Source: Octopus vulgaris | Lineage: Eukaryota | Assembly: GCA_951406725.2 (NCBI GenBank) | Contig: OX597831.1 | Coordinates: 14,508,001-14,572,000 of the forward strand | Reading direction: 5' to 3' | Length of the DNA stretch: 64,000 nucleotides | In this document: piece by piece, positions 3,502 through 55,655 of the stretch | How positions within the stretch are numbered: position 1 is the first letter of the stretch | Layout: each line of letters begins with the position of its first letter | Made by a program: the position numbers and the translations under genes | The notes under the pieces: generated by a model | Seen by the model: only the letters and a program-made list of their open reading frames with translations | Told to the model about the DNA's origin: nothing | The model's database searches: none

Positions 3502-5799
3502 TTATTTATATAAAGGTATGTATCTATCCATATATATATATATGCATATATATGTATATGTATATACGTACACACACAAATACACACACACACACACACA
3601 CATATTTATATATACACACCCATATGCATATGCGTAGATGTGTGTATGTGTGTATTACACATATGACATGTATTATGTACATTACACACACACGCACACA
3701 TATATGTACATAAATGTAAACACATACAGAGACACATGCACACACGCCCGCACACCCACACCCAACCACACACACACACTCATATATGTTTATCTCCGTA
3801 TGGATATCATACATCTGCAGACATCCAAAACGCACTAAAGCTCTCCACTGCAAACAAGCATGCGCTACTCACAACGACAAGCATACATATATAAACATAT
3901 ACAAACATATAACTGCTGAAAAGTCGACACTTCGTTTGATACCACTCAAGAAATATATTAACACTTAGTTACTCTTTATTCAAGCAGATGGCGTACCAGA
4001 GTGTGCTGTCTCTGACCACGCCTATACATCTAAGGAAGATCATTATCATTGTTATAGTAGTTATAATTGGTTTACATCTCAAGGTCAACCCCACCAAGTA
4101 GTGCAGCTCTATGATAGATGGCGCTGAAGCCCTGATCTCTGCATCTCATTCGAAGGAATAGTCTATCGATGACTACACTGTGCAATGTGTCTTTCGTATT
4201 TTAAAACTCTTAACTGTGTGAATCGAAGGGCATTTGGCTGCTACTTCTAGCATTTCGAGCGACCAGCCACCGGTTACCTTCCTGTATGAAGTCACCAGTG
4301 CAACCAGGAATCTAGGCCTGCCAACTTTCCTAGCTAAGCTCCGTACGTTAGTGTGGTGTCTGCACATGCGCACTCGCTGTCACAGTAGTCTGCACGCCCG
4401 CCCACGCCCTGCTGTTCACCTGGACGATGATGTAAGACCAACAGGTATGTCATCACCGTTAAAGGATTCGGACCAATCGATGACAACATGATATGGAGCG
4501 ATGGTAACTAGGGTTGCGCCGTGTGTGTGTGAGTGAACGCGTGTGTAAAGTCTGTGACACGTGTTCGATTTGTAGTCAGGTTATTTTTCTCCACCTCTTC
4601 TTCGTGTTTGCTCTCGTGGTCGTGTGGTTAAGGAACTCACTTTGCGTCCACATGGTTTCGGGTTCAGTTTCGCTGCGCGGCATCTTGAGAAGGTGTCTTC
4701 TGTTAGAGCCATGGGCCGACCAATGTGAATTTGGTAGATGGAAACCTGTTGCGCGTGTGTATGTATATATGCATGTATATATGTATGTATGTGTGTATGT
4801 ATGTATGTATGTGTGTATGAATGCATGTATGTATGTATGTATGTATGTATGTTGTATGTATGTATGTTGTATGTATGTATGGATGTGTGTATGTATGTAT
4901 ACGTGTGTGCGTATGCATGTATGCATGTATGTATGTGATTTTGTGTTTGTCTTCGTCCTCCCTACTTTACAACCGATGTTGGTTTGTTTACATTCTCATA
5001 ACTTAGCGGTTCCACAAAAGATTACCAGACTTAATTTTCAAAAATAAAAAAATGAAAAAACGTTCTCGGGGTGGGGTCGATTCATTCTGCTAAGACCGTT
5101 TAAGGCGGTGCTCCAACATGGCCGCAGTCTAATAACTGAAAGAACTAAAAGATAAAAAGGAAATGCTTATCAGTCACGTGTCCTAGAAACCTTCGTCCTT
5201 TTAAATAAAGGGTGTATTCGATATTGCTGTAAGGGTTTATTGTTAGACCTTTGGCCCCTCGTTGTAGGGATACTAAGTGAGGGAGCGTGTAGCTCAATGG
5301 CTAGGGTGTTGCACCCAGTATCGCAAGATCGTAGTTTCTATTCCTGGGATGATTGGTGCGTTGTGTTCTTGAGCAAAACACTTCATTTCACTTTGTTTTA
5401 TTCCGATCAGTTAGAAACGAGTGACCCTTCGATGGACTTCAGAGGGGACGCTGTGATCTTGGTCACTTATGCGCCACGGAAATCGGGTAAGTGACTCTGT
5501 GAGCCCTAGAGCTCGAGGTAGTAATGTCCAGAGGTTGATGATGACGACGATGATGATGACTATGAAGATAGTTTGGGTATTTTTTAAACAAGGTGGATCC
5601 CATGCTTTTCCAGAAAGACAGGCAAGAATCAATCCTACTATTTCACTGATGGTTTCATTTATCAACCCCGAAATGGTGAAAGGCAAACCTGATCTCGTAT
5701 CAAGGGTTCATTATAACTGAAAAACAGAAATAAAAGGAGGGATGGTTATGGAGAGAATGTCTTTAATGTAAGGCCATCTAGATAAGGATTGGTCCAGAC

Positions 5800-7309: not shown

Positions 7310-7679
<370 letters not shown>

Positions 7680-15830: not shown

Positions 15831-15902
15831 TATATATATATATATATATGAAAAAACAAGTCAAAAATAGAAAATGCTAAAATAATTTTATAGTGAACAT
15901 TT

Positions 15903-15940
15903 CAGTACCGGTTTCGGTCATTTTGAGACCTTTTCAACTG
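15903..15940 (-). ncRNA. Minimal type I HHR in the PLE 3' terminus (U3-A8 core variant)
   Basis: Minus strand reads CAG-TTGAAAA-GGTC tcaaaat GACC-GAAA-CCGG-TA-CTG. Confidence 0.8.
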
Positions 15941-16650
15941 TAACGATTAAATAATTAAATTTAGAAAAATTAGAAGAAAAGTTTTTTTAAAAGAATATTT
16001 CTATAGTAATGTTCAGATTTAAGTGGCATTCTGCCTTTCTCTGACTCCCTTGTTTGCACTTGAGTGTTGGAGGTCGTTGTGAGTTCTTGGTAGGGTAGTA
16101 GAGGAAGAAGGCTGGTGAGGAAAGGGGGTGGGAGAATCTGGGAGTGCCCTGATGGTCGTATTTTGAATGGTCAGTGGCGGCTGGCAGTCTCAGTTCAATT
16201 CAGGAGAATATTTATATTGACAGGCTTGTTTATAGAATTAGCGTAGGTGTTATACTAAAAAACATTAGTGACAAAGTTAAGGGGTAGGGGGTGGAGAAGT
16301 AAAAGAAGAAGAAGAAGAAGAAGAAGGAGAAGGAGAAGATGACGATGATGGTGATGGTGGTGATGATTATGACGACGATGATGATGATAATGATGATGAT
16401 GAAGAAGAAGAAGAAGAAGGAGGGGAAGGAGAAGATGGTGGTGATGATGGTGGTGATGATGATGACGACGATGATGATGATAATGATGATGATGAAGAAG
16501 AAGAGGAAGAAGAAGAAGAAAAAAACAGAGAAGGGAGAATATGAATGGGTGTAAGAATAGCTTTGAAGTGGCTGATTGGTAATGGATTCTATGGAGTGTA
16601 ATATTTGTGTGTGTATATATATTTTTCTTTTATTCTAAAGTTGAGGTATA

Positions 16651-17760
16651 TTAATTGTTTGTCGTAGACCCGTTAAGAAGTGGCTTGTATTTTGTAATAA
16701 AGAGATTTTCTTTACTTATTCGTTGTCTCGAGGTTGTATCGTCCCTAAATTGGTAGAGGGGGAAAATTCTGAAGTTTGGTGTTTTTTTGTTGGCGCAAGT
16801 ATCTATGTGTTGGCTAAAAGCTATTTTTCTGTTTTGGGGAATTTTTATCTGGGATCTGTGCAGGGCCATTCGTTTACGCAAACCATTTTTTGTTTGGCCT
16901 ATGTACTGCTCTTGACACCCGGAGCAGGTTAGTGAGTATATTAGGTTCTCCGAAGCACATGTGAAGTTGCTTTTCACTGTAAACCGTTGTCCCTGTTTGA
17001 AGGAGAACTCTGATCCCTCAATTAGATAGTCGCATATCCCGCAATTGGGTCTTCCACATTTTTTTACTGTCGGCTTCTGTGTTGAAGAGTGAATTCGGGC
17101 TTGTGTAAGGAGACTTTTCATGCATCTAGGCTGTCTTTTGCTTTTTATGATCGTGTGTGTTTGGAGGATTGTGTTCATTCTGTGGTCTTTTTTTAGGAGG
17201 GGTATGTTGTGGAGGATGGTGTCGAAGGCTTCGTTATTGAGAGGGTTGTGTGTGGAGATGTATGGTAAGGCTTTTGGTTGTAAGTTTTTCTTTGATTTGG
17301 GATGTCTCAGTTCCTTGATGTTAAGTTGAAGGGCACGTTGAATGCACTTGTCAATAAGTGAAGGTGGATAGTTCCTGGTGATTAGGGTATCTTTTAGTTC
17401 TTGTAGTCGTGTGTCTCTGGTGTTTGCGTTAGAGACTATAGTGCATATCCTTTTTGCTAGATTGAAGGGGATATTCATCCTGGTGTGTCTGGGGTGGCAT
17501 GAATTGAATGGAAGATATTGCTTAGAGTCTGTAGGCTTATAGTATATGTCTGTTTCTATTATATTATTAGCTTTCTTAATGAGGATATCGAGGAAGGGGA
17601 GTTGTTGTTGGCTATATTCCATCGTGAATTGGATGTTTACGTCCAGTCCGTTTAAAATTTTCTGGAATTCTATGAGTTTTTCTATATTTTTATGCCAAAG
17701 GATGAAACAGTCATCTAGATATCTCTTCCAGTTGTTTTCTATGTAGATGGAGAAAGGGTT
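16651..17760 (-). pseudogene. PLE polyprotein C-terminal part (RT palm/thumb, Cys linker, GIY-YIG endonuclease); frame uninterrupted but 5'-truncated
   Basis: The frame extends upstream of the listed Met as NPFSIYIENNWKRYLDDCFILW (YLDD at 17710-17721). Also LPFLDI, YKPTDSKQYL..SCHP, CGRPNCGIC and NLIYSLTCSGCQEQYIGQT..LRKRMALH. The Cys linker resembles Neptune/Naiad-type PLEs. Confidence 0.93.
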
Positions 17761-17814
17761 CTAGAAAGATATGGTTCTAGAAAGATAAGGTTCTAGAAAG
17801 ATATTTAATCGTTA

Positions 17815-17852
17815 CAGTTGAAAAGGTCTCAAAATGACCGAAACCGGTACTG
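17815..17852 (+). ncRNA. Minimal type I HHR in the inverted PLE terminus
   Basis: Same motif as 15903-15940, on the plus strand. Confidence 0.8.
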
Positions 17853-18023
17853 AAATGTTCACTATAAAATTATTTTAGCATTTTCTATTTTTGACTTGTT
17901 TTTTCATATATATCAACTCGTGTGTTCCTTTTCACCCTTATACATATATATATATATATGTATATATATATGTATATGTGTGTGTGTTTGTGTATGTGAG
18001 TGAGTGTGTGTGTGTGTGTGTGT

Positions 18024-19834: not shown

Positions 19835-20100
19835 GTTTGCAAGATTCCTTAAGTGAATTCGTGTGTTGAAGCATATTTTATTGTGTCTGGGGAGAGCCAT
19901 TTTCTTTTTGTGCCTTATCATTTAACACACTCACCGGTTCGATTTCCACTCATTTAGTTATTTATTTTTTCTAAAATTTTCGTTGCACTTTACAACCTTT
20001 CCAATAATCAACGATTATTGAATAGGTTGTGAGGCACAACGGTAAGTATGTTCAATAACAATGGACTAAAAGAGAATGACTCTCCCTAGACACAGGTAGA
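19835..20100. mobile_element. Degenerate second copy of the 7310-7570 family, also with an internal inversion
   Basis: Shares ctaaaattttcgttg, aaaagagaatgactctc and tttgcaagatt segments; inversion centred near 20010. Confidence 0.55.
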
Positions 20101-21674: not shown

Positions 21675-22163
21675 ATAGATATATATATATATAACCCAGA
21701 GCCTCGGAAGTAGTAACTAGTCAAACGAGGGGTAATGCGCTAGCTACTCGTCTGGCCAAAGAGCTCTCATTTGATTAAGGGATCTTTGGCCCGAAGTTTA
21801 GCCAGTAGATTTCCCCTCGTTTAAGTAATTACTACTTCCGAGGTTCTGTTAGCTATGAAACATATGTAGCCTGAATTTTATCAACACCGTTCCCTAATTT
21901 TGGATTTTTATTTTCATAAACGGGAACCATAAAGTAACTTTTTTTTTAGCTTCTCGAAATTCGATATAGGAAAAAATTTACAACCTTCTACGTAATTAAA
22001 CCTCAACCTGAAAGTTGCTTTTGTTATACCTCCTACGGACTGCTCGAAGCTTAATAATTTTCTACATTCATCCTTGGGGCTTACCTTAGCACATTCATAC
22101 CCCGCCCCTTATAACAAATATTCATCTATGTGAATATGTGTGTATGAATATATATATATATGT

Positions 22164-22218
<55 letters not shown>

Positions 22219-22424
22219 ATTCTCTAAAATGAATATAGACAGTAACTGCTCGACAACATAAGGGACTAAAGCCATCTGAATATGGCTAGGGACAGGGCAG
22301 GGTGGTGGGGGTGTTACTGTTGCATTTAGCCCCAGGCGAACATCGACGTCACCAGAAAGGCTCGACACCGTCACGGTGCCCTAAACCTGCAAAGGGAGGT
22401 AATTCCCCGATGAAGCGGAAACCA

Positions 22425-22470
22425 CACACGGACCATGGTTTCAAGGTGTATTGCCTATCATCGGCGTGTG
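22425..22470 (-). ncRNA. Type I hammerhead ribozyme motif in the inverted monomer
   Basis: Exact reverse complement of 22946-22991. Confidence 0.85.
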
Positions 22471-22945
22471 GTAGGCCTCCGCTTCCTCGACGAATTCTCT
22501 CTCTGCAGGATTTTCTTATATAGATTTTCAAGCAAAATAAATTTGCTGATTTCGAAAATCTGTTCGAAAGCAATAATAATTCTCTAAAATGAATATAGAC
22601 AGTAACTGCTCGACAACATAAGGGACTAAAGCCATCTGAATATGGCTAGGGAATTACCTCCCTTTGCAGGTTTAGGGCACCGTGACGGTGTCGAGCCTTT
22701 CTGGTGACGTCGATGTTCGCCTGGGGCTAAATGCAACAGTAACACCCCCACCACCCTGCCCTGTCCCTAGCCATATTCAGATGGCTTTAGTCCCTTATGT
22801 TGTCGAGCAGTTACTGTCTATATTCATTTTAGAGAATTATTATTGCTTTCGAACAGATTTTCGAAATCAGCAAATTTATTTTGCTTGAAAATCTATATAA
22901 GAAAATCCTGCAGAGAGAGAATTCGTCGAGGAAGCGGAGGCCTAC

Positions 22946-22991
22946 CACACGCCGATGATAGGCAATACACCTTGAAACCATGGTCCGTGTG
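22946..22991 (+). ncRNA. Type I hammerhead ribozyme motif (first direct copy; also 23306-23351, 23666-23711, 24026-24071, 24386-24431, 24746-24791, 25106-25151)
   Basis: Stem I CACACG/CGTGTG; core CCGATGA (U4C variant of CUGAUGA); stem II AGG-caataca-CCT; GAAA; palindromic stem III CCATGG; predicted GUC cleavage after 22985. Confidence 0.85.
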
Positions 22992-25320
22992 TGGTTTCCG
23001 CTTCATCGGGGAATTACCTCCCTTTGCAGGTTTAGGGCACCGTGACGGTGTCGAGCCTTTCTGGTGACGTCGATGTTCGCCTGGGGCTAAATGCAACAGT
23101 AACACCCCCACCACCCTGCCCTGTCCCTAGCCATATTCAGATGGCTTTAGTCCCTTATGTTGTCGAGCAGTTACTGTCTATATTCATTTTAGAGAATTAT
23201 TATTGCTTTCGAACAGATTTTCGAAATCAGCAAATTTATTTTGCTTGAAAATCTATATAAGAAAATCCTGCAGAGAGAGAATTCGTCGAGGAAGCGGAGG
23301 CCTACCACACGCCGATGATAGGCAATACACCTTGAAACCATGGTCCGTGTGTGGTTTCCGCTTCATCGGGGAATTACCTCCCTTTGCAGGTTTAGGGCAC
23401 CGTGACGGTGTCGAGCCTTTCTGGTGACGTCGATGTTCGCCTGGGGCTAAATGCAACAGTAACACCCCCACCACCCTGCCCTGTCCCTAGCCATATTCAG
23501 ATGGCTTTAGTCCCTTATGTTGTCGAGCAGTTACTGTCTATATTCATTTTAGAGAATTATTATTGCTTTCGAACAGATTTTCGAAATCAGCAAATTTATT
23601 TTGCTTGAAAATCTATATAAGAAAATCCTGCAGAGAGAGAATTCGTCGAGGAAGCGGAGGCCTACCACACGCCGATGATAGGCAATACACCTTGAAACCA
23701 TGGTCCGTGTGTGGTTTCCGCTTCATCGGGGAATTACCTCCCTTTGCAGGTTTAGGGCACCGTGACGGTGTCGAGCCTTTCTGGTGACGTCGATGTTCGC
23801 CTGGGGCTAAATGCAACAGTAACACCCCCACCACCCTGCCCTGTCCCTAGCCATATTCAGATGGCTTTAGTCCCTTATGTTGTCGAGCAGTTACTGTCTA
23901 TATTCATTTTAGAGAATTATTATTGCTTTCGAACAGATTTTCGAAATCAGCAAATTTATTTTGCTTGAAAATCTATATAAGAAAATCCTGCAGAGAGAGA
24001 ATTCGTCGAGGAAGCGGAGGCCTACCACACGCCGATGATAGGCAATACACCTTGAAACCATGGTCCGTGTGTGGTTTCCGCTTCATCGGGGAATTACCTC
24101 CCTTTGCAGGTTTAGGGCACCGTGACGGTGTCGAGCCTTTCTGGTGACGTCGATGTTCGCCTGGGGCTAAATGCAACAGTAACACCCCCACCACCCTGCC
24201 CTGTCCCTAGCCATATTCAGATGGCTTTAGTCCCTTATGTTGTCGAGCAGTTACTGTCTATATTCATTTTAGAGAATTATTATTGCTTTCGAACAGATTT
24301 TCGAAATCAGCAAATTTATTTTGCTTGAAAATCTATATAAGAAAATCCTGCAGAGAGAGAATTCGTCGAGGAAGCGGAGGCCTACCACACGCCGATGATA
24401 GGCAATACACCTTGAAACCATGGTCCGTGTGTGGTTTCCGCTTCATCGGGGAATTACCTCCCTTTGCAGGTTTAGGGCACCGTGACGGTGTCGAGCCTTT
24501 CTGGTGACGTCGATGTTCGCCTGGGGCTAAATGCAACAGTAACACCCCCACCACCCTGCCCTGTCCCTAGCCATATTCAGATGGCTTTAGTCCCTTATGT
24601 TGTCGAGCAGTTACTGTCTATATTCATTTTAGAGAATTATTATTGCTTTCGAACAGATTTTCGAAATCAGCAAATTTATTTTGCTTGAAAATCTATATAA
24701 GAAAATCCTGCAGAGAGAGAATTCGTCGAGGAAGCGGAGGCCTACCACACGCCGATGATAGGCAATACACCTTGAAACCATGGTCCGTGTGTGGTTTCCG
24801 CTTCATCGGGGAATTACCTCCCTTTGCAGGTTTAGGGCACCGTGACGGTGTCGAGCCTTTCTGGTGACGTCGATGTTCGCCTGGGGCTAAATGCAACAGT
24901 AACACCCCCACCACCCTGCCCTGTCCCTAGCCATATTCAGATGGCTTTAGTCCCTTATGTTGTCGAGCAGTTACTGTCTATATTCATTTTAGAGAATTAT
25001 TATTGCTTTCGAACAGATTTTCGAAATCAGCAAATTTATTTTGCTTGAAAATCTATATAAGAAAATCCTGCAGAGAGAGAATTCGTCGAGGAAGCGGAGG
25101 CCTACCACACGCCGATGATAGGCAATACACCTTGAAACCATGGTCCGTGTGTGGTTTCCGCTTCATCGGGGAATTACCTCCCTTTGCAGGTTTAGGGCAC
25201 CGTGACGGTGTCGAGCCTTTCTGGTGACGTCGATGTTCGCCTGGGGCTAAATGCAACAGTAACACCCCCACCACCCTGCCCTGTCCCTAGCCATATTCAG
25301 ATGGCTTTAGTCCCTTATGT

Positions 25321-25358
<38 letters not shown>

Positions 25359-25375
25359 CATACATATATATATAT

Positions 25376-25420
<45 letters not shown>

Positions 25421-55381: not shown

Positions 55382-55543
55382 TAGATTCACTTCAACATTT
55401 AAATTTAATTTGTCAAAATATTTTCGTCACTTTGAGACCGCGACCTCTTCACTGACAAAATTCCTATGCAGCACAGAACAGGTCGCGGTCTGAAAGCCAC
55501 GAAATTATTTTAACAAATTAAATTTAAATGTTAAAGTGAATCT
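55382..55543. mobile_element. Inverted-repeat remnant with an HHR-like motif (55412-55456 minus)
   Basis: Inverted arms of about 65 bp. Minus strand reads GTCA-GTGAAGA-gGTCGC..GTGAC-GAAA-ATAT-TT-TGAC. Confidence 0.55.
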
Positions 55544-55655
55544 AACGGTGTTTGTGTGTTTTAAATGGCTTATAAATACCTTCCACGCTGCAACTGATTT
55601 CGTTCCAGTAAACGATCTCAGATCAGGTCACTTGCTATGCAAGTACATCTCCGTA

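Follow-up and report, generated by a model that had tools for sequence, protein, structure and literature searches.

Two-armed arrays of a hammerhead-motif repeat in Octopus vulgaris end at two fixed sites in (TA)n tracts and were likely mobilised in trans by a Penelope element

The window (the whole stretch of 64,000 nucleotides of Octopus vulgaris contig OX597831.1 that was analysed) holds a tandem array of 360-bp units joined head-to-head to a shorter inverted copy, with a TA microsatellite on either side. How does a repeat that has no reverse transcriptase (RT) or endonuclease of its own come to lie in such a place and in such a shape? The answer reached here is that the array is an insertion of a hammerhead-motif family with two fixed ends, one per arm, in (TA)n, and that it is likely the work of an RT/GIY-YIG protein from a Penelope-like element (PLE) acting in trans. 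The locus is made up as follows (window coordinates; unit positions are those of the 360-bp monomer).

22148..22212: (TA)n microsatellite, left flank and target site
22213..22652, minus strand: inverted arm, 440 nt or 1.22 units, unit positions 116 to 195; its 3' end is of the site B class
22213..22254, minus strand: "tail" of the inverted arm, unit 154-195, present only at this end of the insertion
22649..22652: GGGA microhomology common to the 5' ends of the inverted arm and the tandem array
22649..25321, plus strand: tandem array, 7.4 x 360 bp, identical units; its 3' end is site A (unit 153)
22945..22995, plus strand: type I hammerhead motif of unit 1, repeated every 360 bp; predicted cleavage after 22985
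25322..25420: (TA)n microsatellite, right flank

A sequence-only reading had the array fused through GGGA to an inverted block of 440 bp, and so it is: the bases at 22649-22652 can be read in either arm, and the 440-nt arm is 100% complementary to the array unit from position 116 round to 195. Because the hammerhead motif lies on the plus strand of the array, both outer ends are 3' ends in the hammerhead sense, again as proposed. They fall at unit 195 and unit 153, 42 nt apart where about 40 had been estimated, and both enter (TA)n as expected. This offset is the "tail" of PLEs, and a two-armed insertion has one tailed and one tail-less end. The unit 195 end is a recurrent variant of an end at 199 (5/93 loci), and at these variant ends TTATTA can pair with the target. 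An inverted pair of 71 nt (79%) also lies beside the (TA)n tract just left of the array, at window 21697-21848.

Is this arrangement peculiar to one locus? The unit matches many dispersed arrays in the genome at 99% identity or more, and the first 20 mapped were mostly two-armed and tails-out, with ends at unit 153/155 (site A) or 198-200 (site B). Site A was accordingly defined as unit 153/155 and site B as 199 (with the 195 variant), a spacing of 42-46 nt. Exact ends followed by TATAT, a pattern that variants escape, number at least 530 for A153 and at least 747 for B199 genome-wide, and none occurs in reversed controls. In the range covered by both lists (67 A and 100 B ends) there are 44 tails-out A+B pairs within 12 kb. 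No A+A tails-out pair occurs among the 100 listed A ends and no B+B pair among the 100 listed B ends; same-strand neighbours among the listed ends are one A/B and one A/A. As exact patterns miss variants, unpaired ends (for B, 41 of 56) and 40 of the 44 pairs were mapped as well. Among the 121 loci mapped, 95 are two-armed, of which 92 are clean A+B and none A+A or B+B. Since 40 of the two-armed loci were picked as A+B pairs, the fair figures are those from loci in which one end had been selected, where the other end is of the opposite class in 37/38, and from the 17 found regardless of their ends, where 15 are clean A+B and one more (L047) is A+B interrupted by an insertion.

Besides L047, the non-clean two-armed loci include L109, with ends at 74/199. 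Exceptional ends are also found at L139 (128/199) and at L033 (198/~135), the latter being the sole two-armed insertion outside TA, with a shifted second end and a 15-bp target duplication (copies at L033:3803-3817 and 5343-5357). That is the only target duplication seen, duplications being unreadable inside (TA)n. Single arms (n=26) end at A in 13 cases and at B in 13, and their 5' side lies in TA in eight. Ends that had not been selected lie in TA in 66/72 cases, against a background of about 8%, and no poly(A) was found at the printed ends, which go straight into (TA)n; the poly(A) tail plus target duplication that marks LINEs and SINEs is thus not what the array family displays. A second family with the same period, 75% identical to the first, has homologous sites, and by eye all ten of its TA-flanked two-armed loci (10/10, from 25 matches) are A+B. 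Scored over the genome, inversions, end positions and TA flanks therefore speak for the sequence-only reading, with fixed ends, no poly(A) and dozens of inverted loci. The family is a young, dispersed set of protein-less, ribozyme-motif tandem repeats in TA microsatellites, mostly two-armed. One idea that was dropped is that the tail is a uniquely conserved cis element: it is 83% identical between the two families against 75% overall, but unit 60-119 reaches 87%.

What do the two arms of a locus have to do with each other? In 70/90 loci no other arm matches an arm better than its partner does, and in 25 of them, where 0.8 would be expected, the partner is strictly the best match. In the window array a variant at unit 178 (178A) is present in every unit of both arms, and no other locus was seen with it; other array-wide variants fixed in both arms are 231C at L048 and 268G at L045. 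Judged from these variants, both arms of a locus appear to share a source. Private variants are mostly arm-specific (99, against 20 shared), as expected from later mutation, but they lend no support to a shared source. Arm lengths correlate (rho 0.57, n=40 paired loci), though not significantly in the 15 youngest long arrays (rho 0.27). The points at which the two arms stop are no more than 20 nt apart in 19/92 loci, with 5.9 expected, and in 10/82, with 4.1 expected, once a hairpin hot spot is set aside. In 18/93 loci neither arm is contained in the other, a result in keeping with one RNA source primed twice, and in 53/92 the tail-less arm extends further 5' than the tailed one. Junctions between arms are blunt in 20 cases, overlap by 1-10 nt in 50 and by more in three, and carry filler in 19; some of the overlaps are inexact.

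The hot spot is a hairpin at unit 26-43 (window 22674-22691), at which both arm termination and near-symmetric junctions concentrate; the termination peak itself spans unit 18-37. A hard stop at the ribozyme site (unit 338) was considered and rejected, since arm termination runs at about 0.05 per 20 nt just inside this position and 0.03 just beyond it, with no barrier. That the arms freely cross the predicted cleavage site indicates a template that was circular or uncleaved. At L045 only a few units in either arm lack the locus-specific variant, two alleles being mixed among units, which leans weakly to a multimeric template. Joints in Logan contigs of read run X1 (depth 31 and 40) correspond to the junctions of L050 and L171, though this run may be the assembly's own sample; further arm joints of this kind occur in run X10, from another sample. 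No contig from the four runs spans a TA tract.

The hammerhead was recognised by eye. In unit 1 its core consists of CCGATGA at 22952 and GAAACCATGGTC at 22974, and the array form has a C3-G8 core, C at position 4, a U.U at the base of stem II and a palindromic stem III, ACCATGGT. An Rfam search of the window gave nothing at gathering score: the hammerhead models did not match the array at E<=10, and weak HH9 matches fell only on PLE pseudo-LTRs. The MFE fold of the monomer does not form the three-way junction. Subfamilies nevertheless differ in a compensatory manner, with C3-G8 in some and U3-A8 in others, palindromic loops CCATGG, CCTAGG or CCGG, and a stem I pair changed from C-G to U-A; this covariation argues that the putative hammerhead is genuine. 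Owing to its C at position 4 and the U.U at the stem II base, the youngest form is of uncertain activity. A short palindromic stem III is connected with dimer action of hammerheads in PMC4209133, and the same subject is treated in PMC6765202; by analogy, the stem III of the repeat suggests dimer action. A self-closing contig of 390 nt with a single variant was found at depth 107, against 4 in the flank, in one run that is RNA only by guess, and such contigs arise alike from a circle, a multimer or DNA. The second family and a third, related one (L035:9160-9610 and L231-L255; L043:8930-9495) have a better-formed hammerhead, with a U3-A8 core and a stem II closed by G-C, and the same two end sites as the window array.

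By anatomy, then, the repeat would be a non-LTR retrozyme, and it appears to insert like a PLE. On the retrozyme side are the dispersed 360-bp units, one hammerhead motif per unit as read by eye, and the lack of its own RT and endonuclease; on the PLE side are two 3' end sites with a tail at one end, an inverted 5'-truncated head-to-head copy and a TA target. Non-LTR retrozymes are described in Cervera and de la Pena 2020 (PMC7229834) and in a preprint by Li et al. (10.64898/2026.07.22.740005) as dispersed tandem units of 150-450 bp with a type I hammerhead and no coding capacity seen. The repeat resembles them in this, and differs from these accounts, in the parts available, in its inverted arms, two fixed ends and TA target. 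It differs too from retrozymes with pseudo-LTR similarity, in that no matching pseudo-LTR was found at 70 PLE loci and the hammerhead core is non-canonical. Both sources consider that animal non-LTR retrozymes are probably mobilised by PLEs, arguing from co-occurrence, shared ribozyme type and pseudo-LTR similarity, and the preprint leans on local tandem amplification.

For PLEs, PMC11167929 reports that the protein nicks and extends both strands of AT-rich DNA, that the tail, unique to PLEs, is the sequence between two internal RT start sites, and that the protein is predicted to dimerise and uses uncleaved RNA. According to PMC8557442 the tail is frequently confined to one end and accompanied by an inverted copy that is 5'-truncated, and (TA)n targets, mobilisation in trans and proposals of self-priming and endonuclease (EN) resolution appear there and in PMC3846280. 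The repeat shares with EN+ PLEs, as these three papers present them, the two internal 3' end sites, the tail at one end, the inverted 5'-truncated copy, AT-rich or (TA)n targets, microhomology junctions and an occasional target duplication. Unlike them it has no ORF, its arms reach 14.7 and 8.4 units and its tail is 42-46 nt long; the one-of-each pairing that is counted here is called "often" or "optional" in the available text of the EN+ PLE papers. Another precedent is the non-autonomous Chlamys PLEs such as MRC1 (PMC8557442), which are likewise non-coding, multicopy and head-to-tail, and are ascribed to a PLE in trans. These resemble autonomous partners at the 3' end and belong to a clade described there as without canonical hammerheads, whereas the window repeat has a hammerhead motif and no partner was found for it among the 70 PLE loci. 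A literature search found no tails or inverted arms on retrozymes, in a literature whose supplements (the preprint's, and Fig. S9 of PMC7229834) and subscription papers may contain them.

PLEs with the same architecture occur in this genome, one of them in the window.

15850..17760, minus strand: neighbour PLE, 5'-truncated, with the C-terminal part of RT, GIY-YIG and a 3' pseudo-LTR with hammerhead motif; tail-less end into (TA)n
16654..17760, minus strand: RT/GIY-YIG frame of this element
17802..17945, plus strand: its inverted pseudo-LTR arm, with a tail at 17914-17945, into (TA)n

The sequence-only reading had given this PLE the topology of the array and placed it at 15845-17912. The topology stands, the inverted arm at 17802-17913 being 100% complementary to 15842-15953, but the right end lies at about 17945, the tail having been left out. 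The last 32-40 nt of the inverted arm are kept at 100% identity in 39 other best matches and are missing from the left end. The order is RT and then a C-terminal GIY-YIG (22.5 bits, cut-off 22.6), with a hammerhead in the pseudo-LTR; RVT_1 was matched in a sister copy (L143), and a CX4CX2C motif before GIY-YIG would fit Neptune/Nematis as given in PMC8557442. Exact ends of this family number 817 without the tail and 372 with it. Pairs in the shared range are 13 A+B, no A+A and one B+B among the 100 A and 49 B ends listed, and of 20 loci mapped ten are A+B, one is B+B and one is ambiguous. The rule of one A and one B is therefore common to the array family and this PLE, yet not absolute in the PLE. 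The inversion junction of the window copy (17757-17804) holds a 16-bp unit three times over, as if slippage had recurred in the course of joining. The element has no sequence similarity to the array unit, comparison of the pseudo-LTR giving only chance words of 7-9 nt, and so it is an example of the architecture and not a shown partner.

Three old remnants in the window had also been said to contain inversions.

7310..7571: old inverted remnant, same family as that at 19835; its tailed arm enters (TA)n at 7572
19835..20094: old inverted remnant, long arm left and short arm right
55382..55544: old inverted remnant from a third family, with (ATT)n at the end of its right side

The inversions are real, at 7310-7468 (91%), 19882-20094 (80%) and 55382-55544 (82-90%). 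Those at 7310 and 19835 belong to a single old family, which has no relation to either the array or the PLE; by eye it too combines a long with a short arm, and a PLE ORF was absent from 12/12 of its loci (L276-L287). The elements of this family are short, with candidates in the thousands; one of their arms bears a tail of about 50 nt, and they have a degenerate hammerhead-like motif. Taken together, the three remnants lend little support to mobilisation of the array by PLEs in trans.

How might the array have been made? Its architecture, end positions, pairing rule, TA flanks and shared variants are directly seen. A two-site, tails-out footprint in TA is that of PLEs, so it is likely that a Penelope enzyme spreads these repeats, and when all variants of the idea are taken together PLE action in trans is very likely. 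A PLE protein, possibly a dimer, would bind the repeat RNA near unit 153-199 and nick both strands of a TA tract; one nicked 3' end would prime reverse transcription at site A and the other at site B. Each cDNA would cross unit boundaries, the template being a circle or an uncleaved multimer, and the two cDNA 3' ends would be united through microhomology (0-10 nt) or by way of a short filler, and then filled in. Survival of only one cDNA would give a single arm. We infer the enzyme, the single template and this order of events. In its fullest form, with one PLE dimer on one retrozyme RNA (circle or multimer), cDNAs from A and B off opposite TA strands that both run many units, one-of-each pairing as the basic PLE geometry, and the family as a direct genomic record of PLEs mobilising animal retrozymes, the account has in our view about an even chance of being right. 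Against the PLE account in any form counts the tail, 42-46 nt where 30-40 nt is usual for PLEs. Nor would one-of-each pairing follow from the in vitro work alone, in which the RT start site is reported to be the same on both strands (PMC11167929).

Could a single priming event suffice? The first cDNA would fold back and prime itself at a palindrome, and the endonuclease would resolve the hairpin and leave the tail on one end, the process still being PLE-driven. Junction palindromes are read as self-priming in PMC3846280, the tail is ascribed to EN-mediated resolution in PMC8557442, and near-symmetric junctions are indeed enriched here, many at the unit 26-43 hairpin. The 18/93 loci in which neither arm contains the other, and the 53/92 in which the tail-less arm reaches further 5' and cannot there be a copy of the tailed one, mean that simple fold-back of one cDNA fails for many insertions; it could explain a minority of symmetric junctions, and as the general route we hold it to be quite improbable. 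Priming of the two strands from separate RNA molecules, one PLE protein to each, is unlikely, as independent molecules give no cause for strict A/B pairing or for arms that stop at the same point. The shared variants would then reflect one dominant source locus; they cannot tell one molecule from one source locus, and one run, RNA only by guess, holds a single variant.

Two further explanations dispense with PLEs. Twin priming, in the model of Ostertag and Kazazian, reportedly yields tails-out inversions as well, so a LINE could have produced the identical topology, and L033 has its 15-bp target duplication. The printed ends lack poly(A), the second site is fixed and not random, both ends lie within the unit (176 and 222 nt beyond the point of predicted cleavage), and PLEs in this genome show the same pattern, so that LINE-type mobilisation is very improbable. 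As for an assembly artefact from fold-back reads, or a rearrangement of a satellite at the DNA level, the units are perfectly identical and the window junction is absent among the contigs listed. Such an origin is scarcely credible all the same: junctions are mostly asymmetric, hundreds of sites show the fixed ends, the structure persists in older copies (82-95% diverged), and joints of the same kind occur in the read contigs of X1 and X10. Priming by a PLE RT/endonuclease in trans, from both strands of a TA microsatellite, which the sequence-only reading had put forward, thus remains the best explanation of the footprint of fixed ends, TA flanks, inversions and missing poly(A).

Each part of this picture is known already; the link between the parts and the counted pairing rule appear to be new. 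The papers, in their available text, argue for PLEs as the mobiliser of animal retrozymes from co-occurrence and sequence kinship only, and hundreds of protein-less arrays that bear a footprint described as unique to PLEs are evidence of a more direct kind. The formation of PLE tails and inversions is listed as unsolved in PMC8557442, and the in vitro work, in the parts available, found two start sites without linking them to two arms; the array family bears on that mechanism.

Which PLE would supply the enzyme? In a rotifer, PMC3846280 reports that cross-mobilisation between PLE types was not seen, and a matching partner would therefore be expected for the repeat. Seventy PLE loci (L141-160, L201-230, L256-275; at least five families) were sampled from 6136 GIY-YIG candidates, and no pseudo-LTR match to the unit was found in their 3' regions among the matches listed; other matches at these loci are copies of the repeat in the flanks. 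A 23/26 match of the tail to RT coding sequence of a 781-aa family (E 0.005) was treated as chance. No PLE ORF is joined to the repeat in 120 loci of the array family or 25 of the second family, three PLE ORF matches near repeats of the array family lying in separate flank insertions. Other PLE families sampled in the GIY-YIG search likewise have (TA)n at their ends, some ends carrying a tail of 30-50 nt and some not.

The 781-aa family is a candidate enzyme. It is 65% identical to the window PLE, has its own hammerhead and a tail of 37-39 nt, and keeps an intact frame in many copies (L207, L212, about 16 listed GIY-YIG matches). Since this one genome offers both intact PLE frames and a repeat RNA of 360 nt whose two start sites are known to the base, the question is open to direct test. 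It is of note that in four PLE families the tail starts with ATATA, matching the target. At the same point the older retrozyme subfamilies have AT and the youngest GT, and the youngest still ends at 153/155.
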